Shown: in pieces, positions 7,310-57,600 of the stretch
Position numbering within the stretch: the first letter of the stretch is position 1
How the letters are laid out: each line of letters starts with the position of its first letter
Origin: Elsinoe ampelina
Taxonomy: Eukaryota
Length of the DNA: 64,000 bases
Reading direction: 5' to 3'
NCBI GenBank assembly: GCA_010093995.1
Contig: ML992502.1
Span: 62,001-126,000 of the forward strand
The notes under the pieces: generated by a model
Told to the model about the DNA's origin: nothing
Databases searched by the model: none
The model's input: only the letters and a program-made list of their open reading frames with translations
Translations under genes and position numbers: made by a program

Positions 7310-10300
7310 ATGGCTTCCGTGGCAGGTGAGGGTGCTGTGAGCAACCGGCCGACCATACAGGATCTTACTGGCGACAACCAATTCGCTCAGCTTGCGCGCA
7401 AGTACTGGCTCGGAAAGTCGAAGGTCAAGAAGGTCCAATCAAATGTCATAGTCGAGGTCTACCAGGCGATAGAGAAGGAGGGTCTTTCTACCGCATCCAC
7501 AAGCCTACTTCTGCTTGAGCAACTTCAGTTCCTGGATCGATATTTATGGCCGGGATACCCAGAGCAGGAAGCTTCAGACTACCATGTCATCTTGGTTGCG
7601 CTACTAGTCAACGTCAAGCGGCACGAGGGAGTCTCGCCATGGGCCACATTCTCCTCCGAACCAGCTCACTTCTCCCACTTCTTCAGACGAGTCCTCGAGC
7701 TATCAATCGACAAATCAATCTCGCTTCCAATCCGAACCCACCTTCTGAGCTTCATCATCGGCGCATTCCAGTCCTTGGACACGGGGATCATCAGGAAAGA
7801 GGCGGCTGCTTTGGTTTCGATTGGAATATGGCACAATTTGCACAGTGAGGAGGTACGGACACAATTGCTAGGGAGAACGGTCCAGCTCGGCAAGGCGTGG
7901 AGAGCTGCTGGAAAGAAGTACGACGCCGCAGATGAGGAGACCCAAGCGCGACTACGCTTCGAGAGATCGTGGCTGTACGAGCTGGTTCTGGACTTTCTGG
8001 ATCGTCTGTATGACACGAATGTGCAGAGCACAAAAGAGACGGTGCTGTATTGTGAGAGGGTGGTCGAACTATTGGCAGACCTGTTGAGCCAGCTTCCGAC
8101 ACGAAGATACGTGAACACACTGCTTGGAGATATCAACTTGCTCTCTGCCATCACACTCTCACCTTCGTACTCGGACGAGGATAACAACTTACTTCGGGAA
8201 ATGGTCGTACTACTGCAACATTTCCTGACATTTCCTATCGAAGACCATACTGGTCGAGAGATCACCGAGACGGAATTGGTTGAGCAACACAATACAACCC
8301 TTTCTCGGCTACAGAAGGTCGCGCTGCGGGACTTCAAGGATAAGTTGACTATCCTTGCCTTGTCAAATTTCAAGTCATTGGATTCTCGGACAGATTTGGA
8401 AGGGCATCTCAAAGGTCTAAGTGACGAGGAGCTGAAGAAGCTTTGCGAAGCTCTACATCTGCGGACAGAGTACCCAGCGTCATCACTAGTGGTTAGTGAC
8501 AGACAGCTCTTCACCGAGGTGCTAGTCAACATGCACGAGCGACGACCATCATACAAGGAAATTGTCCATGGCATGACGACAATGCCCACAGATACAACCA
8601 TCTACGAGAAGACCTTCGACCGTACTGAGGAATACGACGGATCCAGACCGTTGCCAGTCCCCAAGCTCAACCTCCAGTATCTCACAGTCAGTGACTTTCT
8701 CTGGCGATCGTTCATTCTGTATAGGTGCGAGAGCTTCTATGAGGTACGAAAGCATGTCGAAGATACGATCCGTAGGATCCAACCACGACAAGCTGGAGCT
8801 GGGCTACGTTTTGATGGTTTCTCTACAATGGCCATCCCGATCACAAAACCTGCTGTCATTGATGTCGCGCCTGCAAATGTCGGCGACGAACATCCATCAA
8901 AGGTCGAGGTCGAAGTCGCTCTTGACGTCAGCAAGTTCACTCCTGGCGTGAAACGAGAATGGGAGTCTCTGAGGCCAGATGATGTAGTCTATCTGGTCTC
9001 TGTGCAACCACCGCCTCCGCAAAACCGAGCTCTGACGAACGGCGGGTCTAGAGATCAAGCACCTCCCAAGGTCATCAAGCACCTTCGTTGTGCTGAGGTC
9101 ATCAACGTACTCGATGACGATGGCAAGCCGTTACGGGAAAGGCAGTCAGACATGAATGGCGCTGGACGAGGACGAAAACGGAGGCTATTGCTCAAGCTTG
9201 ATCCTCTGGCATATCAGAACGACATCAGTAAGCCCGAGGTCCTTGACGGCATCAATCTGATTGTCCGTCGCCGAGGACGGGAAAACAACTTCAAGCCTAT
9301 CCTGGAATCGATCCGACATCTCGTGCTGTCCGAGACGCCAGCTCCTGCTTGGCTACAAGAAGTGTTCCTTGGATATAGCGATCCCGCAGCCGCAACCTAC
9401 AAACGACTGCCCAGTCGGCTGAAAGCCATTGACTTCCGCGATACATTCCTGGACTGGTCCCACCTCGTCGAAAGTCTTCCTGGAAAGACCGTCGAGCCAG
9501 ACGAGTCTAGCAATGGTTCCTTCCCGCCGCCTTACGTGCTCGAGACAAGCACTGCAGAAGTCGCAGAGACGAGACCGACAAAAAAGCGGAGGAAGGAGAA
9601 GGAAGAGCCAGCGCGGACGGAGATGGTAGAGAATGTCAAAGTATCGACGTACAAGCCACCAAATGCGGGACCATACCCGTCAGATGCGCCAAAGACGAAC
9701 GTAATCAGGTTTACGCCTGCACAAGTTGAAGCCATCACCTCAGGGACTCACCCAGGTCTCACTGTCATTGTTGGCCCACCAGGTACCGGCAAGACCGATA
9801 CAGTTACACAGATCGTCAGCAACATCTATCACAACTTCCCTGAGCAGCGAACACTGCTTGTGGCGCACAGCAATCAAGCTCTGAATCAGCTATTCCAAAA
9901 GATCACGGCACTCGGCATCGACGAACGGCATCTGCTCCGGCTTGGTCATGGTGAAGAAGAGCTGGAGACAGATGCCGACTTCAGCAAAGGGGGCAGGATC
10001 GAGTCGTTGATGGAGCGATCTGCGCAATACCTTGGGGAAGTCCAACGACTCGCTGCTAGTATTGGTGCGCCTGGCGCGCATGGCAGCTCCTGCGAGACGG
10101 CAGAGTACTTTGACCAAGTCTACGTCAAACCAGCCTGGAGCAGATTCTGGGAGTTGGCCAAGTCCTCAACAGACGTGTCAGCCATCACATCCGCTTTCCC
10201 ATTCCATGGCTACTTCTCAAATGCTCCGCAACCAATCTTCCCAGCCGGTGCAACTCCAAAACAGGTGCTGGACATTGCCTCTGGTTGCCACACTCATCTC

Positions 10301-43331: not shown

Positions 43332-46300
43332 TGTAACTATATAAATACTTAACCTAGTGTACTAAAAGATAGCTAAATCAAAAGAACTCCTTAATAGTAG
43401 CAGATTAAGACAATAATTATCTAATTTGATTATAGATTAGTAAAATAGTAAGATAGTGTTTAGTTTAACCTTAGGATAAACTAAATTAGGGTCTTCTTAG
43501 CGCTCTAGCTTATACCTCAGTTAATATACCCCTTTACTAAGTAGCTATAACTCTATAATAGCTAGTTAGTAGACTACTAACTCGAGAGATAGCTATTATA
43601 AGAAGGCCTTATATCTCCTAGGTAGTAATAATTTAGTAAATCTATTAGCTAGTATATCTACTAATAGTGTCTATATAACTAAGATAGGACTAGATAGATC
43701 TCTAGCTTAATTAATCTCTTGTTTTAGCTAATAATAATAAATATTAACATAGTAAAGATATATATTTAGCTTCTTAATTAGAGTAGTAATAAGACTAATA
43801 GTTTACTAATTATTACACTAAATACTAACATATTTAAGAGGATAGATAGAAGCTATTAGCCTCCTTTACTATATAGCTTACTTAGTAGTCTTTATAAAAG
43901 TAAGTAGCTTAGCCTCTATAGTTAATATTATAACTATTAGTTACTTTATAGCTTTCTAGTTAATTAATNNNNNNNNNNNNNNNNNNNNNNNNNNNNNNNN
44001 NNNNNNNNNNNNNNNNNNNNNNNNNNNNNNNNNNNNNNNNNNNNNNNNNNNNNNNNNNNNNNNNNNNNNNNNNNNNNNNNNNNNNNNNNNNNNNNNNNNN
44101 NNNNNNNNNNNNNNNNNNNNNNNNNNNNNNNNNNNNNNNNNNNNNNNNNNNNNNNNNNNNNNNNNNNNNNNNNNNNNNNNNNNNNNNNNNNNNNNNNNNN
44201 NNNNNNNNNNNNNNNNNNNNNNNNNNNNNNNNNNNNNNNNNNNNNNNNNNNNNNNNNNNNNNNNNNNNNNNNNNNNNNNNNNNNNNNNNNNNNNNNNNNN
44301 NNNNNNNNNNNNNNNNNNNNNNNNNNNNNNNNNNNNNNNNNNNNNNNNNNNNNNNNNNNNNNNNNNNNNNNNNNNNNNNNNNNNNNNNNNNNNNNNNNNN
44401 NNNNNNNNNNNNNNNNNNNNNNNNNNNNNNNNNNNNNNNNNNNNNNNNNNNNNNNNNNNNNNNNNNNNNNNNNNNNNNNNNNNNNNNNNNNNNNNNNNNN
44501 NNNNNNNNNNNNNCCTCTAATAGAGTAATACTAGAATAGTCCTTTATAAGATCCTCTACTACTAGCTTAAATCTAGTAGAGATAGTATAGTAAATAGTCT
44601 TATTAATAGAACTATTAATATAGGTATTAACAATATCTATCTAGATAGCCTCTATATCTTTATAAGTAAGTAATACTATAAGCATTCTAAAGATCTTAGC
44701 TACTAGAGTTACTATATAAGTCTTAGATTTTATTAATTAAAGATTACTCCTTATATAGACTTTTACTTTATACTTTATAACTTCTTCTTTATTATTAACT
44801 TTATAGGTAAATATCTATATTAAAGAGATAGGCTTACTAGTAGCTTAAGCTACTAGTATAATAGTCTATATATGTTTTAAGTATAAAGTAAGTAATTTAA
44901 CCTTTATAGCCTCTTAAAATTACTTCTTATAAGAATAAGCCTTAAGTTCTCTAATATTAGCTAGTAGTACGTCACAAAAACACTTTTCGTGGGGAGTTAG
45001 GGAATTAGGTTTATTGCTTAGGATTGCGTTGGAAAATCCTAAAAGAGTTATATTACCTTACTATTTTTCGTACTATTTTCGCGTTTTTCGCGATTTTACG
45101 TGTCTATTTAGAGTAAATTTACTTTCCCTATATATTATNNNNNNNNNNNNNNNNNNNNNNNNNNNNNNNNNNNNNNNNNNNNNNNNNNNNNNNNNNNNNN
45201 NNNNNNNNNNNNNNNNNNNNNNNNNNNNNNNNNNNNNNNNNNNNNNNNNNNNNNNNNNNNNNNNNNNNNNNNNNNNNNNNNNNNNNNNNNNNNNNNNNNN
45301 NNNNNNNNNNNNNNNNNNNNNNNNNNNNNNNNNNNNNNNNNNNNNNNNNNNNNNNNNNNNNNNNNNNNNNNNNNNNNNNNNNNNNNNNNNNNNNNNNNNN
45401 NNNNNNNNNNNNNNNNNNNNNNNNNNNNNNNNNNNNNNNNNNNNNNNNNNNNNNNNNNNNNNNNNNNNNNNNNNNNNNNNNNNNNNNNNNNNNNNNNNNN
45501 NNNNNNNNNAACGTAATCTAATGCAATCTAATGCAATTCCCCACGAAAAGTGTTTTCGTGACGTAGTAGAAGATTATCTCTTAATTCTAGCTTAGGCTAA
45601 GTTAGTGTTATTAATAGATAAGTATTAAAGGCTTAGTAATATTTAGAAGCCTTATTAGTTTATATAAGGGTAGTAATATATACTTACCTTCTTAGTTTTC
45701 TTATTCTTCTTATTATAAGAATATATTTAGAAAGAAGATTAGCTAACCTTATAGTAATTCTTTAAGAGAGTTACTTAGGCTAAGCTTTAACTACCTCTTT
45801 AGTCTAAACTTCTATCTTATTTCCTTTAGCTTTATCTCCTCCTAGTAGTAGAGGAGATAGCTATACTACTATAGATAGTAGTAAGGCTAGAGTATTAAAG
45901 AACTATTTATTTAGTAAAGATTCCTAGATTTAAGCTAGGTTTAGATCTAGAATAGTCTCTTCTAATTAGTCTAATAGAGGTAGTAACTAATCTAGTATAA
46001 TAGAGTAACTCTTATCTAGCTACTAAAATAGGCTTAGCTCTTAATCTAGATTACTCTAACTTAGAGTCTAAGATAGTATCTAGTTCGGCTACTAAACTAG
46101 ATTCTAAACTAGATTCTAAACTAGATTTAGTTTAGTTATTCTCTCTACTTTATATACTCCTTTAGATTTATTAACCTCCTATAGAAGCCTTAGTAGATTA
46201 AGTAATCTAATTAGTTTTAGCTAAGATTATTCCTCTAGCTTATAGAACTAAGTTTTATTAAATCTAATATCTCTTATTCTAATAACCTTCTTAGAGGCTA

Positions 46301-47905
46301 GTATAAAGATNNNNNNNNNNNNNNNNNNNNNNNNNNNNNNNNNNNNNNNNNNNNNNNNNNNNNNNNNNNNNNNNNNNNNNNNNNNNNNNNNNNNNNNNNN
46401 NNNNNNNNNNNNNNNNNNNNNNNNNNNNNNNNNNNNNNNNNNNNNNNNNNNNNNNNNNNNNNNNNNNNNNNNNNNNNNNNNNNNNNNNNNNNNNNNNNNN
46501 NNNNNNNNNNNNNNNNNNNNNNNNNNNNNNNNNNNNNNNNNNNNNNNNNNNNNNNNNNNNNNNNNNNNNNNNNNNNNNNNNNNNNNNNNNNNNNNNNNNN
46601 NNNNNNNNNNNNNNNNNNNNNNNNNNNNNNNNNNNNNNNNNNNNNNNNNNNNNNNNNNNNNNNNNNNNNNNNNNNNNNNNNNNNNNNNNNNNNNNNNNNN
46701 NNNNNNNNNNNNNNNNNNNNNNNNNNNNNNNNNNNNNNNNNNNNNNNNNNNNNNNNNNNNNNNNNNNNNNNNNNNNNNNNNNNNNNNNNNNNNNNNNNNN
46801 NNNNNNNNNNNNNNNNNNNNNNNNNNNNNNNNNNNNNNNNNNNNNNNNNNNNNNNNNNNNNNNNNNNNNNNNNNNNNNNNNNNNNNNNNNNNNNNNNNNN
46901 NNNNNNNNNNNNNNNNNNNNNNNNNNNNNNNNNNNNNNNNNNNNNNNNNNNNNNNNNNNNNNNNNNNNNNNNNNNNNNNNNNNNNNNNNNNNNNNNNNNN
47001 NNNNNNNNNNNNNNNNNNNNNNNNNNNNNNNNNNNNNNNNNNNNNNNNNNNNNNNNNNNNNNNNNNNNNNNNNNNNNNNNNNNNNNNNNNNNNNNNNNNN
47101 NNNNNNNNNNNNNNNNNNNNNNNNNNNNNNNNNNNNNNNNNNNNNNNNNNNNNNNNNNNNNNNNNNNNNNNNNNNNNNNNNNNNNNNNNNNNNNNNNNNN
47201 NNNNNNNNNNNNNNNNNNNNNNNNNNNNNNNNNNNNNNNNNNNNNNNNNNNNNNNNNNNNNNNNNNNNNNNNNNNNNATTAGTTATAATTAATAGTATAT
47301 AGGCTACCTTTATAAGATAGATAGTTATAGGCTTTCCTTTATAAAGAGCTATAATATTAATAGTTCTCTAACTCTTAATACTAAGTAAGGTATTACTATA
47401 GAATAGCTTCTTATAAAGTTCTATAATTCTAGTAACCTTATATCTGTCCTTTATAGTATAATTATAGATATAATTAGTTACTCTAGAATCTAGTATCTAT
47501 AAGTTAGAGATGTTACTAGTAGCTAAAATAAATACTAAGTGTAATCTAATAGTAATAGCTATATTAATTAATACTAGTAGAGTTAACCCCTTTTAATATT
47601 ATACTTCCTTAGTAAAAGAAGTCTTAATTCTCTCTTTAAGAGTCTTATTATTTAGTCTTTATTTAACCTCCTTTATAGTCTACTAGTTTAGTGTCTATTC
47701 TTCTAGCCTTAGATACTTATTTAAGTAATAGTACTTAATCTACTTATACTAGCCTTAGTATATATATTTAAGCTCTCTAGAGAGACTAGGTTTCTTATAA
47801 AGAATATTCTTAGTAGCTATAGAGAAGGCCGTAGCCCCCTTACTAGCCTTTATAGTACTATATAGCTTATAAAGTTTATAAAACTATCTAAATATAAGGG
47901 CTTAG
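43332..47905 (-). mobile_element. RIP-destroyed Ty1/Copia LTR retrotransposon (gapped, interrupted by nested elements)
   Basis: De-RIP motifs in Copia order on the - strand: gag knuckle ~47760, protease WILDSGAT ~47490, integrase C-term KKVIRTRDVRFD ~46290, RT LPPPP..WIFTYK ~44820-45570, RNase H ~43650-43950; PPT and putative 3' LTR ~43525-43332 ending in CA. Confidence 0.8.
44970..45563. mobile_element. TIR element/MITE with TA duplication inserted in Copia pol (interior is an assembly gap)
   Basis: CGTCAC[A/G]AAAACACTTTTCGTGGGGA inverted termini; TA on both sides; removal restores the Copia LPPPP frame. Confidence 0.8.
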
Positions 47906-49414
47906 TATTAGAGCGGTACTTAGTAGCGGCTAGTCCTACTTACGTAATGTACTTAAATATTCTATATAGCGCTTACGCCTAGGGCTTAATAGTAATTAGT
48001 TCTACTACTAACAGACTATTCGGTTAAATAGACATTCTCTATATTACGACATATATAGCTTTAATATAAGACATTAATAGTTCTAATTACTCCTCTATAG
48101 TTATAATCTATTAGACCTTATAGACAACTAGAACTCTATTAGTAAGGCGCCTATACCTCGTATAAACGATGTTATAGAGATAGACTCTATTAAGTAGACT
48201 TCCCTAGAGAAAGAAGAAACTCTTATAGAGTAGCTACTATACCTACGCGCCGAGCGTAAGTATTTAGAGCTAGAGCTTAAGGCTTAGAGCCTCGAGGAAG
48301 AGATTAAGTAGATATATTACTCGCGCGATATAGAATATACTTCTACTAGCTTTAGCTATAGCTTATATACCTCTATAGAGTATATAGTAAGTAAAGCTAG
48401 TACTTAGAGTATATATAGCTTAGGTAGATTATTTATAAGACTATTCTTAGAACAACCTTAATTAAGAGAGCCTTATCTCTATTAAGGTAAGACGCTTAAA
48501 GAGGTAAGATTCTTCCTAAAGGATCTTAAGGTTATCTTTACTCTAGCCTCTAAGGCTTATTCTACTAATTAGTAAAAGATACTATATAGAGTTATATTTC
48601 TCGCTAGCGAGCTAAATAAGATATAGTATTACTACTACTATATAAATAGCCTAGAGAGCTATATATAGAAGTAATTTTGCTAGTTTATATAGAATATAGT
48701 TAATAACTCTATTAACTATAGAGTGTATATAACTCTTATATATAAGAGTACCTAATAACGTAAGAGCTAATCTATCTAGGTCTTTACCTTAGAACTTACT
48801 ACCCTAGAGAAGTAACTAGCTCTCTACTTAGAAGAATAAAAAGTATACTATCTCCTTACTAAGTTATAGCCTACACTACGTACTACTATTATTAAGTACT
48901 ATACTATTCTAGCTACTCGCTAAGAATTAGTATCTCTTAGCTCTTATATTAAATTATTAAACTATATAAGCTAGTATAACTGTTAGAGCAGAGTTAGGGT
49001 AGCTAAAGGCCGACCCCGGTACTAGTATAGAGCTATTCTTAGTAGGTTAGTACCTAGTGCTAAACTAAATAGTACTAGCTCTATACTCTACTATATTAGT
49101 ACTAGTACTAGTACTACGCCGAGCTATACTAGTACTAGTACCGTACTATAGTTAAGCAAGAATAGTACTATACTATAATAGCGCTATACTATACTATAAT
49201 AGCACTATACTAAATTAGTACCGGGGTTAAATCCTAGTATTATACTACGTTATAGTACTACGCCTTAGTTAGGCTTTAAGGCGACTATAGTTACTATACT
49301 ATACTTTAGTATTATAATAAGTCTATAGAAAGGAAATTTAATAGTCTAGTCTATATAAAAATATACCTACCTATTTCTTATAGTTTATTCTTATAGTATT
49401 ATAGAGAAGAGGTC

Positions 49415-49999
49415 TTAATAATTAGAGAAAGTAAGTAGGTAGTACTTATTATAATATTTCTTAGCAAGCTAAGAGTCTTTCTATATAATAGTATAATACT
49501 TAGCATAGATAGTGTTAAGATTATAGTCTACTATAGTTATTAGTATAAGGTATTATATATTCTAAATATATAGTTAATATACCTTCGAAATATTCTACTA
49601 GTATTGTCTTACTTACTTTCTAGAGATACTTAATAGTATCTAGCGTAAAGCGTAAATCTTTACTTATAAGTGTTAACTTAATATCTTACGTAATGTTATA
49701 AATAATATAGAAGAAGAGGAGCTTATATATAAGAAGTTTAGTTATCTTCTAGTAGCGATAAATCTCTTAGAGGGTAATAGCTATACTATATTAGATATAA
49801 GACTATAAGAATTTACTATAAGAAACTAACTACCTAGCTTAAACCTATAGCTCTTCGCCTAGTAAATTTATCTAGTTAATACTAGTCTAAATTTTGTTAC
49901 GTAACTACCTATAGTAGACTTTTTAGTAGTAGTTTTCTTAGCGCCTTACTTCCTTAGCTTTACCCTTTTTAGAGGTGTTACTTACTTCTTACGAGCTAT
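49415..49999 (-). pseudogene. Histone H3-like gene captured in the hAT, RIP-inactivated, 3 exons
   Basis: Exons 49999-49831, 49780-49583, 49527-~49415; literal reading ..YRFKLG|TITL*EIYRY*KITKLLIYKLLF..DLRF..L*KVSKTILVEYFE|DYNLNTIYAK..TII*KDS*LA converts by C>T/G>A reversals to [63 protein letters not shown]. Confidence 0.9.
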
Positions 50000-50375
50000 A
50001 GCTATATAAATTTATTAAATTAATTGTTAAAATTTGTTTATAAAGGTAAAGAAGAGTAAGGCGAAAATACTAAGAGTAAGATATTAAGCCTTATTAAGGA
50101 ATTTATAATAGTATATAGAATATAAATTTCGTATTGTTATTCTCTACTATAACAACTTTATATTAACAATATTAACAACTTTATATTAGTATAATAATAG
50201 AATAAATACCTATTGTTACTTATATTTCTAGCTACTCTATTTACTATATATATAAGAAATACTAAATTCTTCTCTCTTTATCTTCTCTTTATAAAACTTA
50301 TATCTTATATCTCGCTCCCTATTATACTTAATATTCTACCTTCTCTTATAAATTACTACTAATTCTCGATCTATA

Positions 50376-51647
50376 ATGTCTACTAATCCTATAGATTAGT
50401 AAACCTTTAGTAAAGAGGAAGAGATAACTAATACTCTAGTAATTAAGACTAAAGAAATAACTAAGGAAGAGAAAGTAATTCTTACTATAATAGGAGTAAT
50501 TCTTATAGATACTTCTTATAGTTAAATACTAACTAGACTATAGAGTTTTAATTCTAAGGCTAATAAGATTAAATACTAGATTAAAAATCGCTCTTAGAAT
50601 ACTAGAACTTCTTACTATAGCTACTCCCTTAGAATTCTATAGTAGAAAGTATAGCTTAGTAATACCTAGTAAGTAATTTAGTAAAGAGATTACGCTATAT
50701 AAGCTAGTATAGAGAAGAAAGCTCTTACTACTACTAGTAATGCTAATTGCTCTATAAAATATACACTTAAGGCAAAACTTAAGAACTCTAAGGAATTCTA
50801 AGTAATATTTAATAAGAAGAAAGAAGCTACCTTTAATATAGTATACGAGAAGATAGTAGAGACTCGCTATTATACCTAGTAGAGTAGTATATTTCTTATA
50901 GCATATTCTTATAGTATATCTACTAATTCTATATAGGGGAATAGTTAGAGGACAAGTTTATATCTATTTACTAAAAATAGAGTAGTATCTATAAAGCTAA
51001 TACTCTCCTTTACTATAAGTAACTCCTTACTAATTATATAAAGAAGATACTCTATAATAAGACAAATATATTTCTAAATTGCTAAGTAAAACATCTTCTT
51101 AGTACTAGCGGAATTCTTAAGAAATAGACCTATAAGATCTACTACGACAGTGTTAACTTACTATATAATACTAGTAACTATAATAATAGTAACTAAGCTA
51201 AGTTTAAGAAGTTTATTAAGAATATAATACCTACTAAACTCTAAGTAGTATAGGTAGATAATTAGGTATATATTATTTCTTATAGTTATTTCTTATAGTT
51301 ATATACTAATCTATCGAAGCAAATATAAACCTACTCCCGAACTAGAATTTAAGTACAAGAATAATAATATTTTACTTAAATCTAATAATTACTATGTTAA
51401 GTATAGTAATAACAAGGTTAAAGAAGAAGTTAAGAATAACTCTAAGATTAAGAACCTTCTTAATAAGAAACTTAATAAGTATAAGACTAAGGAAGTAGCT
51501 AAAATATACTATAAGGTAGTTACTACTAGAGACTTTAATAATTCTAATTAAGAGAATTAGGATAAAGATAATAATAAGGCAATAGATAAGAGTAATAATA
51601 ATAATAAGAAGAGTAAGAGTAAGAATAATATAGATAAGAATAAATAG
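50376..51647 (+). pseudogene. Second hAT cargo gene of unknown family with inferred acidic C-terminal tail, RIP-destroyed
   Basis: ATG at 50376; frame interrupted only by TAA/TAG (RIP-type) stops; intron-like segments 50887-50936 and 51266-51319; gat-aat-aat-aag runs at ~51540-51647 de-RIP to D/E tracts. Confidence 0.55.
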
Positions 51648-51821
51648 ATTAACCTTAAGTTAGGAAAATTAGACTATAGTTTTAGTAGCTTTCTAGTTCT
51701 ATACTATTAAAAATTTTTTAATCTACAAATTAAGAGTAGCTAATAGATTCTTATAGAGTATTCTTATAGTCTTCTACTTCTTATTATATAGCTAGTAATA
51801 TTCTATATTTCTATTCTTAAA

Positions 51822-54600
51822 ATGTTAGTGTTTAATAAAGACTTAGTTAATCCTTAACTATAGATACTCTTAGAAGTTGTTACGCTACTACTACCTCTCC
51901 TTTACGAGCTTAAAGAGTTCTATATTAATTACTAGAATAATCTATTCTCTACTCGATTCTATAAAACTATTAAAATTATTAGCTATCTACTCTACTAACT
52001 AGATATACTACTCGAAGAATAGCTAGCTATATAAGCCTAGAAAATATAGTAGCCTATAATATTAATAGGTAGCGAATTAAGAGTTAGCGAAATACGAAAC
52101 CTACTAAACTAAAATTCTATAACCCGCTATAGAGTTATTTAGACTAACTTTAATAAAGGTACTAAGCTCGCTAATAAAATACCTCTTATATATTATCTCT
52201 ACTATAGTAGAGCTTTATAACACTTAATAACGAACTTAATTAGTAATAAACACCTAATAAAACATCTTAGACACTAAAGCTACTAGAATATAAAATCTCC
52301 TAGCTATAAATAATTAGTAGCTTAGATAGCTCTAACGTAATTAAAAGCGAATACTACTAGCACTATATCTTATATACTATAATTCTCCCTAGAACAATTT
52401 AAAAAAGAGCTTATTAAGGTCCTTATTAATTATAATTAGTTATTCCGAATAGTTAATAATTCCTCCTTTCTCTAATTTATATATTTCCTCTAGCTATATA
52501 CTAATATTCTAAGTTAGACGTAGGCCTTAAGACTATTAAAAGAGCACTATAAGGACATTTAGTCTAATCTTCTTACTAATCTTAGTAGTTAGACGAAAGT
52601 TTTAATTACGCTAGATAGCTAGTCTATAAATAACTATCTAAGTTTTATAGCTATAAAGGTATACTATATTAATAATAACTAGTAAGTATATAAGTGCCTA
52701 CTAGATTTTATACTAATTAGTAGATAGTATACTAGAGTTATACTTAGTATAGAACTACTAAGAGTTCTAAATAAAAAAAAGATTAACATATATCTTCTTA
52801 CTATTATAGTAGACAATATAAGTAACAATAATACTCTACGATCTAAAGTATAATAAGGTCTTAAGAAGAAGAGTATATACTAGTTCTCTATTAAGAATAT
52901 AATTCTATATCTAGCCTATGTAATTAATCTTATTATATAAGATATTATTTAAGCTCTATAGCTAGAAACTACCGAGGATAATAAGAAAGCTAATAAGCTT
53001 AAGAAGTAGTATCTCTATAATATTTAAATAACTCTATTAGTTCCGAATTCTCTTTATAAAGTAAGTTATATTTCTTATAGTTCTTTCTTATAGTTTTTTA
53101 ACTAATTTTAAAGCTCTATATAATTTATATTATAATTAACTAATCCCCTTAACGCTACTAACACTTTAAATCTCTTTAAGTATATCTACCTCCTTATAAA
53201 TAACTCTTAGTCGTTTAGGACGTTTATACCTATTAGAACTTAATATATAATATATATAAGCGAGCTATTAAACTTTAACTAATTATTAATAAATAGCTTA
53301 ACGTAGAGATTATAATTGTATATAAGCCCTAAACTAATAAAGCGCTAGCTAATTAAGATATAGTATCTATTAATTACATAGATATAAAACACCTTTACTT
53401 TAGCTATACTAAATAGGCATATCTAAAGATTGTTATCTAAATACTAGAGAATTTTAAGAATATAACTAACTAGCTAAGTTAGTCTTATACGCTATTAGTA
53501 TAATATATATAGCTTATGTATAATACTCTTTTTAACTTTCTTAACGTAGTTAAGTCTACTTAGGAAGAGAATAATAACTTAGACTAGCTATTAGTTATAT
53601 AAAATGTAGTAAAAGCTAGTTATACTAAGCTTTCTAAGTATTATAAGTAAACGAGTAAAGGTTAAGGTTTCTTGTTTAATTATAGTATAATTTTAAATCT
53701 AACTTAGAAACTTAGTATATATAAGTATACTTCGTAGGAACTACATTTTAAATCGCTTTACTATAAATAGTTCCTTAACTACCTTAATTACTATAATAAT
53801 AACTACTCTCCTTAAACTACTCTTCTATCTCCTCTACTAGCCTTATCTATTACTTACTAGTTTAAGAAGCTTTCCTTATTAAATACGAGAAGTAGCTTTA
53901 TACCTCTAGTATCTAGCTAAGATAATACACTTTTATAAGAGTAGAGTAATATCTATATAATAAGAATAGAAGGAGAGAATTACCTTAGAACTTCGCCTAT
54001 ATAGGAAATATCGGAATTTAATATTCTTTCTTAGTAGAAAGAAAATAAGTACTTATTTCTATAACTAGCTTATATTACTTATAATGTTCTTATAATACTA
54101 ATCGCTAGCGTAGGTATTAAATGTGTTTTAATATAGTAAAGAATGTTATTAGCGATTAAAGGTATAGACTACTTCTATAGATAATCTAATAAATTATAGT
54201 CTCTAAGCTAGTAGAAAATAATCTTTAAAATATCTAATCGGCTAAGACGAACAATTTTACTACTACTAACAATAATACTAATAGTAGGATAAATAGTATA
54301 AGTAACAACTTTAGAGATATTACTATCTATAGTTTAAGTAATAAAGAGATTAACGAGGAAGAAGAGTATAATAAGGACGAAGATCTACTATATAACGTTA
54401 CTAAGGTTAGAGGCTAGTATTTTAAGTATATCTAGTTAATAGTCTCTAAGTAATAATACTCTTATAGTATCTATACTAATACCTACTCTAAAGCACTTCC
54501 GCGCGTATCTTCTCTATTACTATATATAATTCTACCTACTAATACTAATAGTCTCTCTTTGTTAGCTACCCTAAGGAAGCTTATTCCCTTACTCGCTAGT
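51822..54600 (+). pseudogene. hAT transposase, RIP-destroyed (end approximate)
   Basis: De-RIP: BED-like CxxC..KHL, SIALDGWS..FMAVKAHYID, ITADNASNN, IPCLAHVINL, intron 53061-53113, QDVHTRWNSTY, dimerisation domain LSWWKENE..FP.LA..ARDVLAIPIAGVGIERVF. Confidence 0.9.
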
Positions 54601-57600
54601 ATCTTTAATATAACTATATTTGTATCTACATTAGTTATACTAGATTCGCTTATAAAAACATTAACGAGAAAATCGTATAGATCGACTATAATATAAAGGC
54701 TAAAGCTATAACTAATCTCCGCGCTACTTCTCTTATTATTAACCTTAATAACTACTTCCGCTATAGTACCTATAACCTTAGCTAACTTATTACTAACGCT
54801 ACTCTCTATACTATTACTAATATCTACCTTATTATACTCTCGACTTTCTTACTAGGTTTAAGCCTAATAATAGTTAGGTTACTTTCTAGAATAATACTAA
54901 TAGTAAAGAGAATAACGAGGAAGGTACTTCTACCGCTAGTACCGATAGTACTACCTAGAGTAGTAATATAACTACTAGTATAGCTAGAGGTAATATAAAT
55001 ACTTCTACTTTAAGAGCTTATATACACTATTGTTATAGTTAATTTTAGTTACTTACGGGAAGAGATAATATAATTAAGTCTTTATAAAGTATAAGTCTAT
55101 ATTATTAATAACTAACTAAAGCTATTAGCCTACTAACGCTTTAACTACGCTACCTTAATTAGATTAGTTATCGGAAGAAATACTATCGTTACTATCGTTA
55201 ATATAATTTAACTTCTCCTACTTATATTTAATATTATAGCGTATAGTAAAGAGTAAGAGTAGATCTACTCTTCTATTAAGAATAAGACAATTAATAGTAC
55301 GCTACATATTAATTAGGTTAAAGATATTATTAGTCTATAAGATATTATACTAATATTTGTTAGATTATAGAGAAAGATTAGATTAGGAACACCTATAAAG
55401 TTATAAGGAGTATCGTAAGTGTAGTAGGCTTTATAGTAAAGTACTAAACCTCTATAGTTATTATAGATATATTTAGCTTAGATTTTGTAGTTATTATTAA
55501 AGTTAAGATATATAAGAGTTATATAGTAGATATAGGCTTTACACTAACGTAGGTATAAGGGCCTAGCGTAGTTACTAGGAGTTATCTTATAAGGCTAAAA
55601 GGGAATTAGATCTACTAGGTCGAGGTAGAGTTAAGCGTAAGAAGGAGACATTATAGAAGAAAGTATTAAATAACAAGAAAGAGAGGTTTAAGAGAAAGAA
55701 GGAGAAATAGCAACTAAAAGGTATATATATCTAGCATTACCTATTATAAGAACAATAATATAGATAATAGCTATTATCTATTATAAAAAAACAACAATAC
55801 TAATAATAGCTATTGTCGAATAATAGCTATTATTATACTAAGGGATATAAGTAGATTATTAGCTAAGTTACTTCTTTCTCTCCTTAGAAACATTTAAATA
55901 ACTATCTAGTATACCTTTACGTCGCTATAGTATAACTTATACTAACAGTTGCTAGAATTTAAGTAAATCTACTACTATATCTACTACTTACCCCTCTATT
56001 ATTTATTAGGCTAATATTACTTACTATAAATTTATTAATAATCTTTAGGTAGAGATTAAGGCTCTAGATAGCCTTATACTTACTATTAACTAGTAATCTA
56101 ATAGTATTAAGACAATTCGTAACTATACTATAAGTTAGTAAGAAAGCTAAACTACCTAGAACTAATTATTCTAGTCTTAGACTCTACCTAATAGCTTTAG
56201 TACTCCGGTTTACTAGTTAAGAGTTATAATTTATATAAGAGTAAACTTACTAAGGATAGAATATTCTCTAGATAAAGTAGATAATAAGATAATAAAGTAT
56301 TAGTTCTAGGTAGTATATAGCTTACTAGCTAAGTATATAAAATAGACTTATAGAGGTTATATAGATAATATTAATTAGGTTAATCTTCTATAAATTACTA
56401 TTAGGTCGTAATTGTATATAAGAGTTAATAATTAATAACTTTTACTTCTCTCTAGTATTCTTTACCTACTATAACTTTAAGCGTTTAGAGTAGAAAAGTA
56501 ATAAGAGTTATAAGATATAGTAGTTACTATAAGAATTTACTATAAGAATAGCAACCCCGGTATAGTACTAGTAAAGGTACACTAAGGACTTAATAGTACT
56601 ACACTACTTATCTGCCGACCTAACTTAGTACTATACTACGTCTAGAATATATACGACCTAACCTATACTTAGTACTAGTATAGTGCTATTATAGCTATAG
56701 TATAGAGCTAGTACTAGTACTACTAAGCCCTTAGTAGTACTACGCTAGCTAGAGGCCGATCTAAACCCTAGTATAGTACTAAACCTAAAGGGGCTAACTC
56801 TACCCTAATAGTTATACTAATATAAGCTATAAGCGTTTCGCCTATAAAGAGAACTTAGACCTACTATATAAGTATAGAACTTAAGGTAGCTCTTAAGAAA
56901 GAAACTACTACTAGTCTAGTAGTAGCTCTTAAGTTTATCGCGAGTAAGAGGCTACTAACTTATCTACTAAATAGTTTAGTAGGTAAGAGAGCACCTTCGA
57001 GGTATAGAAGAAGAATACTAAGTATTATAGCTATAGTAGAACTAGCTATATTAAGCCGGAGTATAGATCGAAGTACTTATAGAAAGATAAGAAGTTATAG
57101 ATAGTATATAAGGTAGCTACTATAGATAAGGTTAATAACTCTAAGCTAGTAAACTCTAAGAGCTTAGCTAATAAGCGTAACTAAGCTCTACTCTTCTTTT
57201 AATCGATACTTACCTATCGCTACTCTATTATAGCGCTATTATAGCGCCTATAGAGCATAAAGACTATATGTTTCTTATAAATAATTATATAGAAGTTAAT
57301 CTTATATCTTAGGTATTTACTCTTCGTTATAATTTACTAAGAGTTAAGTATACTTAGTATCTAAGTATATCTTTCTTTATAGAGTAAGCCGGATTCTACT
57401 ACGACATATACTAGCTTCGCGTATATCTAGTAGACTTCTATAGTAACCTTAGAGAGATAATTAGCCTCTTCTACGCTATAGACTTAGGACTAGGCTCTCT
57501 AGTTATCTTAGAGCGTCTATAGCGAAGAAGATAATATATAATTATAGATAGCGCTATAGATAACTAGTTATATAGCTACTTCTTATATATAGTTTACTTA

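Follow-up and report, generated by a model that had tools for sequence, protein, structure and literature searches.

We analysed a 64,000-nucleotide stretch of the Elsinoe ampelina genome (GenBank assembly GCA_010093995.1, contig ML992502.1, positions 62,001 to 126,000 of the forward strand; hereafter the window, whose numbering is used throughout). It contains a hAT transposon with a histone H3-like gene, a central open reading frame (ORF) and a transposase gene, in that order. The element is dead and heavily altered through RIP (repeat-induced point mutation), and it holds eight exact copies of a spaced doublet, TTCTTATAG-N4-TTCTTATAG. Judging from sequence, this conserved bipartite doublet most likely labels what is transcribed but non-coding, namely introns and 5' leader, in a family of hAT elements carrying H3-like genes. 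As to its role, we tentatively read it as a bipartite cis-element on the pre-mRNA that would control splicing of the element's genes (probability of about 0.45), with DNA binding as a live rival.

hATs carrying H3 are already known, and the doublet would bear on how their genes are controlled and why the histone is retained. That distant relatives appear to keep a strictly spaced doublet in introns and leader suggests a single switch serving the entire element. If this is true, the H3-like gene would be wired into the element's own control, and would not be a passive passenger.

Eight exact doublets with a fixed 13-nt period

A two-strand pattern search of the window returned eight exact doublets, each a 22-nt direct repeat of two 9-nt half-sites around a 4-nt spacer (9+4+9), with a period of exactly 13 nt. 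The half-sites are identical in 16 of 16 cases while the spacers vary, transversions included; the block invariant across the eight sites is TTCTTATAG-N4-TTCTTATAGT, and the flanks are unalignable. Identical half-sites with variable spacers argue for constraint on the half-sites and on their spacing, and against recent copying. The initial annotation of this DNA had listed seven such doublets with an exact 13-bp period and a variable 4-nt spacer: all seven were recovered with unchanged coordinates and strands and their period was exact, but an eighth, at 50500-50521 (+), had been missed. With three mismatches allowed, the window gave just one further, weak match (59627); the doublet thus has no degenerate copies.

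The 9-mer TTCTTATAG occurs 20 times in the window, as 16 doublet halves and four solo copies, the latter outside the element. It is the top 9-mer of the element (16 copies, against a shuffle mean of 1.05 and a shuffle maximum of 6). When repeated 9-mers were sorted by offset (9 to 30), an offset of 13 was found eight times and every other offset 0 to 5 times.

One could suspect an artefact, i.e. that RIP collapsed unrelated sequences into one AT-rich word, or that low complexity produced the pattern by chance. RIP is indeed close to saturation in the element (CA 61, TG 43 and TA 1701 in 7,848 bp), and a metagenome scan with the exact doublet gave at least 115 loci, many of them, by eye, plain 13-bp tandem duplications in unrelated DNA. 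None of the loci listed resembled the element beyond the motif when inspected by eye, and three of them (L009, L092 and L114) are RIP-like and carry one exact doublet each without detectable relation to the element. Against an artefact, dinucleotide-preserving shuffles of the window (n=100) yielded no doublet, and shuffles of the element alone (n=1000) at most one. In the rest of the 64 kb there is no exact doublet, none consistent with an ancestor before RIP, and none once bases are reduced to purine or pyrimidine; about 11.3 kb of this DNA is likewise AT-rich and RIP-like, and 43 kb has normal GC. The initial annotation had seen no doublet in the equally RIP-mutated Copia, Gypsy or Harbinger DNA and had proposed shuffled controls. 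The restriction of the enrichment to offset 13, the G and C of the half-site, which are not made by RIP, and the presence of the same period in relatives that escaped RIP also speak against such an origin, which we regard as highly improbable.

Among the metagenome loci, L009:2001-2022 and L092 (minus strand) are two copies of one unrelated RIP-like repeat. Their doublet has the spacer TTTA followed by TCTT, as at 49803, and their flanks differ by transitions with the doublet unchanged.

The sequence of the half-site before RIP can be approached from its composition. Neither CpA nor TpG occurs in it, and RIP could not have produced its C and G. Across the element, CA plus TG stand about nine-fold under an even composition; at a rough conversion of ~90%, and supposing that CA or TG had once stood at each of the 32 TA steps in the 16 half-sites, full conversion would be expected in ~3% of cases. 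A second source is a copy from another organism label (organism B, described below), in which the right-end doublet keeps both half-sites and differs in its spacer. The low odds of full conversion and this exact copy make it probable that the half-site already read TTCTTATAG, at least partly, before RIP. The caveat of the initial annotation that each TA might hide another dinucleotide is thus weakened, also because the part TCTTAT/TTTTAT is common with the word deduced for relatives. Among the 40 listed of 540 differences between contig copies, none falls inside a doublet; these differences do not amount to a conservation profile.

Doublets in verified and candidate introns follow the direction of the genes

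Two introns of the element could be verified independently of the doublet. The first belongs to the transposase. Exon 1 (51822..53060, +) was identified by protein matches and ends at VPNSLRK; its translation, with stops kept as residues, matched 416 proteins at E ≤0.001 (best 2.5e-42) and aligns with residues 91-401 of its best full-length match, P0003. Exon 2 (53114..54253, +) lies in another frame and aligns with P0003 residues 418-623 (E 9e-42). A Dimer_Tnp_hAT match in exon 2 (E 0.019, 15.2 bits) is under the Pfam cut-off, and close relatives carry PF05699. Among the relatives of P0003, the top named matches are 'Dimer-Tnp-hAT' proteins of Pyrenophora tritici-repentis, and the alignment is collinear. 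Between the exons lies a 53-nt intron (53061..53113, +; GTAAGT...AACTAAT...AAG), verified by the frame shift plus homology: spliced P. tritici-repentis proteins read SLRK[I/L]RAIC right across the 53-nt gap. It contains doublet 7 (53072..53093, +).

The second is found in the H3-like gene, on the minus strand. Exon 1 (49834..49999), read by eye, encodes an N-terminal tail ~11 residues beyond canonical length, and its start codon is now ATA. Its frame closes at 49834 with the RIP-compatible KPHRYKPG, the downstream frame opens at 49780, and removal of the 53-nt intron between them (49781..49833; GTAGTT...CTAAT...TAG) joins the two. This intron falls between residues 44 and 45. Exon 2 (49503..49780) encodes the histone fold, which matches residues 47-106 of H3 chains in PDB (E 3.7e-7) and, under the cut-off, Pfam Histone (E 1.4e-4). 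Doublet 2 (49803..49824, -) lies within this intron, sense to the gene. Both verified introns (2/2) therefore carry a doublet in sense orientation, in genes on opposite strands.

Three further doublets fall in the central ORF, a candidate gene ('cargo gene 2' of the initial annotation; 50376..51649, +) recognised by an ATG and an A-rich open frame. Doublet 3 (50500..50521, +) sits in an intron-like string at 50496-50543 (48 nt), doublet 4 (50893..50914, +) in one at 50884-50936 (53 nt) and doublet 5 (51277..51298, +) in one at 51266-51319 (54 nt, ending in AAG). These strings read GT...doublet...CTAAY...YAG/AAG over 48-54 nt, and are proposed on splice-signal patterns. With them, sense orientation is found in 5/5 intron contexts. 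The initial annotation had placed doublets just after the 5' splice site of four introns in three genes. This is confirmed for the H3-like and transposase genes, while in the central ORF, to which it had attributed two doublets and not three, the introns remain candidates defined by splice signals.

For the central ORF, a word search found no homologue. In tblastn, the first 320 residues of P0172, a chimeric protein that contains the P. tritici-repentis central ORF in this N-terminal part, matched nothing in the element, although heavy RIP may hide similarity. Stop-density ORF mapping was discarded as gene evidence, openness being non-discriminating in this composition. A six-frame Pfam scan of the read-through element returned nothing besides the sub-threshold Histone match. 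Two presumed RNA runs gave, on the element, two partial contigs at low-complexity 51586-51630 and no contig, respectively.

The remaining three doublets lie outside these introns. Doublet 6 (51748..51769, +) is 74 nt upstream of the transposase ATG and downstream of GTAGCT, where a possible 5'-leader intron spans 51736-51791. Doublets 1 (49375..49396, +) and 8 (56527..56548, -) face inward and stand off the left and right ends of the element by 404 and 272 bp, respectively. Doublet 1 has no nearby GT or branch signal; doublet 8 has GTTGCT 1 nt upstream and no close branch signal. Each lies just inward of one of two arrays of another word, the palindrome TAGTACTA, present in seven copies on the left (49070..49260; element positions 99-282) and eight on the right (56563..56781; element positions 7592-7803). 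With 15 of its 17 copies subterminal and two internal, TAGTACTA is the classical subterminal repeat of the element, and the doublet is not.

Splice signals accompany most doublets: a GT starts 4-12 nt upstream in 7/8 (background 0.40, P 0.008) and CTRAY follows within 17 nt downstream in 5/8 (background 0.088, P 2e-4). The five intron strings add up to 261 nt, or 3.3% of the element, and contain 5/8 doublets, a comparison that is partly circular since three strings were recognised via their doublets. By contrast, the stretch at 54.3-56.5 kb, over 2 kb long and apparently non-coding, has none. The block shared between introns is 23 nt long, and the rest of the introns are unlike. Predicted intron RNAs (48-56 nt) are unstructured (z from -0.6 to +2.0; 5/6 fold worse than the shuffle mean), which would leave the doublet accessible.

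Some further regularities concern the position of the doublets. Five of the six on the plus strand (49375, 50500, 50893, 51277 and 51748) share the same genomic phase, with spacings of 1125, 393, 384 and 471, all multiples of 3 (chance ~1 in 81). The 384-471-bp spacing in the central ORF suggested tandem units, an idea we dropped for lack of clear likeness between the units (best z 3.8, mononucleotide shuffles). On either side of the histone-fold exon, doublets 1 and 2 are the arms of an inverted repeat of 30 nt (49374-49403 and 49796-49825; 90% complementary) that could pair on the H3-like transcript if its 3' end extends that far. Finally, two of the five intron strings end in AAG (51319 and 53113), and in P0153, which is not RIP-mutated, the orthologous intron likewise closes with a codon for lysine, just ahead of LRAIC; AAG may characterise the 3' splice sites of this family.

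An apparent counterpart with the same period in relatives that escaped RIP

The sequences of many relatives come from ORF callers that do not splice, so that the doublet is deduced there from amino-acid read-through and not from DNA. Among 38 proteins with the VPNSLRK motif, 33 run into the orthologous transposase intron and five are spliced. The read-through tails hold FIT, YH and LS[Q/H], which we interpret as a single word, TTTATCACA, in three frames (TTT ATC ACA; TAT CAC; TTA TCA CAN). In tails of at least 12 residues (n=32), 25 would have two or more such words, six one word and one none, and the spacing of the first two is exactly 13 nt in 25/25. A period of 13 equals 1 modulo 3, and hence predicts the cyclic peptide orders FIT to YH, YH to LS[QH] and LS[QH] to FIT; these, and no others, are the orders listed for 13-nt pairs. 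Since the period is not a multiple of 3, doublets leave this cyclic signature in unspliced ORF calls, and the approach may be reusable.

The pattern is not confined to one intron. The same pair of words appears in a second intron, after QKLTAYE, of P0151 and P0152. Beyond the tails, 82,344 residues contain five more 13-nt pairs. In P0163 and P0122 the pair belongs to a 5' leader that was translated ahead of the true start, a parallel to the doublet at 51748. Another, in the more distant relative P0039, is again a tail past an exon end; those in P0104 and P0018 correspond to an ordinary coding motif and to a rearranged C-terminal stretch. The transposase intron itself is orthologous from Pyrenophora-like proteins to relatives with 22% identity. 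Read from these peptides, the 9+4+9 doublet appears to be a conserved, family-wide feature. The element-wide cis code postulated in the initial annotation gains from these data, in which exact half-sites, sense orientation in both verified introns and an apparently common 13-nt period come together.

Three qualifications apply. Antisense copies would mostly meet stops and hence be invisible in tails, so that an 'always sense' rule in relatives is biased. Among the longer proteins searched, we found no H3-like relative with a read-through intron. Lastly, the half-site is TTCTTATAG here and T[T/C]TTATCACA in relatives, the only common part being TCTTAT/TTTTAT.

Possible readings: a splicing signal, a DNA site or a spread intron

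Exact half-sites, free spacers and a 13-nt phase that seems fixed down to 22% identity suggest a reader with two identical heads. We favour its action on the pre-mRNA because of the link of the doublet with introns and leader, an orientation that goes with the gene even on the opposite strand, an intron RNA predicted to be unstructured, and the use of a different word as subterminal repeat. In this scenario the doublet would lie unstructured, with the 5' splice site on one side and the branch point on the other. A sequence-specific factor, made of two RNA-binding units or acting as a dimer, would bind it and then help or gate the excision of all the element's introns. Expression of the transposase and H3-like genes, and perhaps of the central ORF, would thereby be joint and tied to a single condition. 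We infer each of these steps: that the doublet acts on RNA, that it has a part in splicing, that a specific factor binds it and that the genes are co-regulated. What would be expected of intronic splicing control, i.e. a site in the intron, in sense, near the 5' splice site and shared between introns, is found in both verified introns and in the three intron-like strings.

Several observations weigh against such control on RNA. The introns of this element are recognised from DNA and protein sequence, the central ORF and its three introns are candidates, and the doublet of relatives is deduced from read-through peptides, among which antisense copies go unseen and sense is favoured. Doublets 1 and 8, in inverted orientation just inward of the subterminal arrays and without a close branch signal, would suit a DNA-level role in transposition. 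The divergence of the half-site between this element and T[T/C]TTATCACA is unexpected for a conserved host splicing factor. In addition, a 22-nt block fits a 50-nt intron only between the 5' splice site and the branch point; with a single possible slot, the position inside the intron is not independent evidence.

The same doublet could instead be read on DNA by a protein of the element, whether through a zinc-finger region of the transposase, the product of the central ORF or a dimer. Subterminal copies would then aid end recognition or synapsis, and internal copies would autoregulate transcription. Fixed 13-bp direct repeats with free spacers are typical of dimeric DNA binders, and a half-site specific to each subfamily fits a site co-evolving with a binder encoded by the element. 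The inverted doublets 1 and 8, next to the TAGTACTA arrays, lie where such sites would be useful. The transposase has kept a RIP-compatible CxxC...HxxxH pattern aligned to the 'YCLxCG...HLxxH' of its relatives, and BED fingers of hAT-derived proteins have been reported to bind short words containing ATC/GAT. hAT elements such as Ac and Hermes carry subterminal repeats bound by their transposases. The doublets resemble these in being short repeated words, two of which are inverted in subterminal regions. However, hAT subterminal repeats are clustered at the ends and rare inside, whereas 2/8 doublets are subterminal and 6/8 internal, and it is TAGTACTA that behaves as the subterminal repeat. DNA sites would also hardly explain why orientation tracks transcription in all five intron contexts, that of the minus-strand H3-like gene included, or why copies are crowded in introns of 48-54 nt when more than 2 kb of other non-coding DNA is free of them. 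Internal high-affinity sites would moreover titrate the transposase or provoke aberrant cleavage. The initial annotation had left dimeric binding and splicing control side by side; intron association and strand-tracking tip the balance to splicing, and DNA binding is somewhat unlikely while keeping a real share of the probability.

Alternatively, one intron core might have spread through the element, by reverse splicing, gene conversion or introner-like insertion, and been kept for generic splicing of short introns with neither dedicated factor nor regulation. All introns are minimal (48-54 nt), with room for little more than 5' splice site, doublet, branch point and 3' splice site, and the half-site is pyrimidine-rich with a weak branch-like CTTAT followed by AG. 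The H3-like intron could be a later gain, as another family of H3-carrying hATs captured an H3 without introns according to the available text of PMC6710886. The transposase intron, on the other hand, is orthologous in relatives of 22% identity, which rules against a recent gain, and the likeness between introns is limited to two 9-mers with unrelated spacers and flanks, which argues that introns were not copied as wholes. Nor would 16/16 exact 9-mers and an exact 13-nt period be kept by a generic pyrimidine tract; copies also occur outside introns (doublets 1 and 8, perhaps 6), and no doublet is present in the window's 43 kb of host DNA. Taken together, spreading of an intron is an unlikely source of the pattern.

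Introner-like elements are a known case of introns of different genes sharing sequence, and the Dothideomycetes, the host lineage, are known for them: they are described, in the available part of the source, as numbering hundreds of copies, exceeding regular introns in length and having a stable predicted structure (PMC3609843). The introns here are instead 48-54 nt long, unstructured and alike only in two 9-mers, and host genes within the 64-kb window have no doublet. Three features by which introner-like elements are defined are not seen here: many copies in host genes (assessed in 64 kb), length with structure, and whole-intron similarity.

Returning to splicing control, there are precedents for its logic. 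In yeast, the splicing regulon of Mer1 targets is defined through an enhancer that lies in the intron, close to the 5' splice site; the P-element is controlled through splicing of its third intron. By analogy, the doublet would be a short transcript element common to several introns, through which one factor would decide splicing. It differs from both systems in being a strict two-part direct repeat with a 13-nt period and in occurring in every recognised intron of one mobile element and near the element ends too. Restless, a fungal hAT described by Kempken and Kueck in 1996, is said to undergo alternative RNA splicing of its transposase message; we know of no motif shared between Restless and the present element.

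A more daring variant of splicing control is a private code: the doublet, in every intron and the leader, would be read by a protein of the element itself (the central ORF product or the transposase), which would time all genes, the captured histone included. Site and reader would then co-evolve between subfamilies, giving TTCTTATAG here and TTATCACA in relatives. We think this quite unlikely.

Relation to known H3-carrying hATs

The closest described system is the transduplicating H3L hAT of Pyrenophora tritici-repentis, a 5.6-kb element with H3-like gene, central ORF and transposase (Manning et al., 2013, PMC3538342). As far as the available text goes, the architecture is the same, with the H3-like gene inside the terminal inverted repeats (TIRs), and the H3-like protein has in both cases a lengthened N-terminal tail, and its fold contains an insertion (PMC3538342). 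The nearest named relatives of our transposase are also P. tritici-repentis proteins. Differences are that the Elsinoe element is 2.2 kb longer (7.85 kb), heavily RIP-mutated and dead, and that similarity to the central ORF is undetectable in it. No intron motif is described in the available portion of Manning et al. (2013). P. tritici-repentis has intact, transcribed copies, which makes the role of the doublet directly testable.

RIP-inactivated families of H3-carrying hATs are also known from Pseudocercospora, Cercospora and Sphaerulina (Dhillon et al., 2019, PMC6710886, from the text available). They share with our element a target-site duplication (TSD) of 8 bp, an H3-like cargo and hundreds of RIP-mutated copies in AT-rich blocks, and differ in the captured H3, intron-less there. 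The six consensus sequences present in the available text of PMC6710886 contain TTCTTATAG once, solo, and no doublet, with the limit that 9-mers across the 72-nt line breaks would escape; 'motif', 'subterminal' and 'binding site' are absent from the same text. In that source a second H3-like copy of Pseudocercospora has a 16-residue insertion relative to the native gene; 16 codons are 48 nt, and one may speculate that the insertion is an unrecognised intron.

Our literature searches found no description of the doublet. A full-text search with the 9-mer gave, among the matches listed, unrelated primers or human splice sites only, and searches on fungal hAT transposases together with intronic splicing enhancers found nothing relevant.

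Boundaries and copies of the element

The limits of the element were set with contigs of two DNA runs, X1 and X3 (the latter labelled as the other organism, organism B), placed at 80% likeness. Contigs of other copies stop at 48972 and 56819, beyond which flanks differ, and one X1 contig connects 48963 directly to 56820 as an empty site lacking the element. This corrects the extent given in the initial annotation to 48972..56819 (+; 7,848 bp). The element is bounded by a TSD, the 8-mer ATATAAGC, on the left (48964..48971) and on the right (56820..56827). End-to-end comparison revealed TIRs of 26 bp (48972..48997, + and 56794..56819, -), whose arms are identical in 23/26 positions, the remaining three being transitions. 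An 8-bp TSD and short TIRs are both characteristic of hATs. The family is present in high copy number (3,782 contigs in X1 and 12,000 in X3), and differences between copies are nearly all transitions.

In X3, a low-depth organism B contig jumps backward from 51284, in doublet 51277, to 50510, in doublet 50500, which hints at recombination or rearrangement between doublets. The ~2.3 kb from the transposase to the right-end doublet (54254-56526) contain no Pfam match, doublet or clear gene; within this right part of the element, 55745-55822 is a 39-bp tandem duplication (77% alike). To the left of the element, AT-rich DNA is interrupted by three masked runs of N, at 43969-44513, 45139-45509 and 46311-47277.

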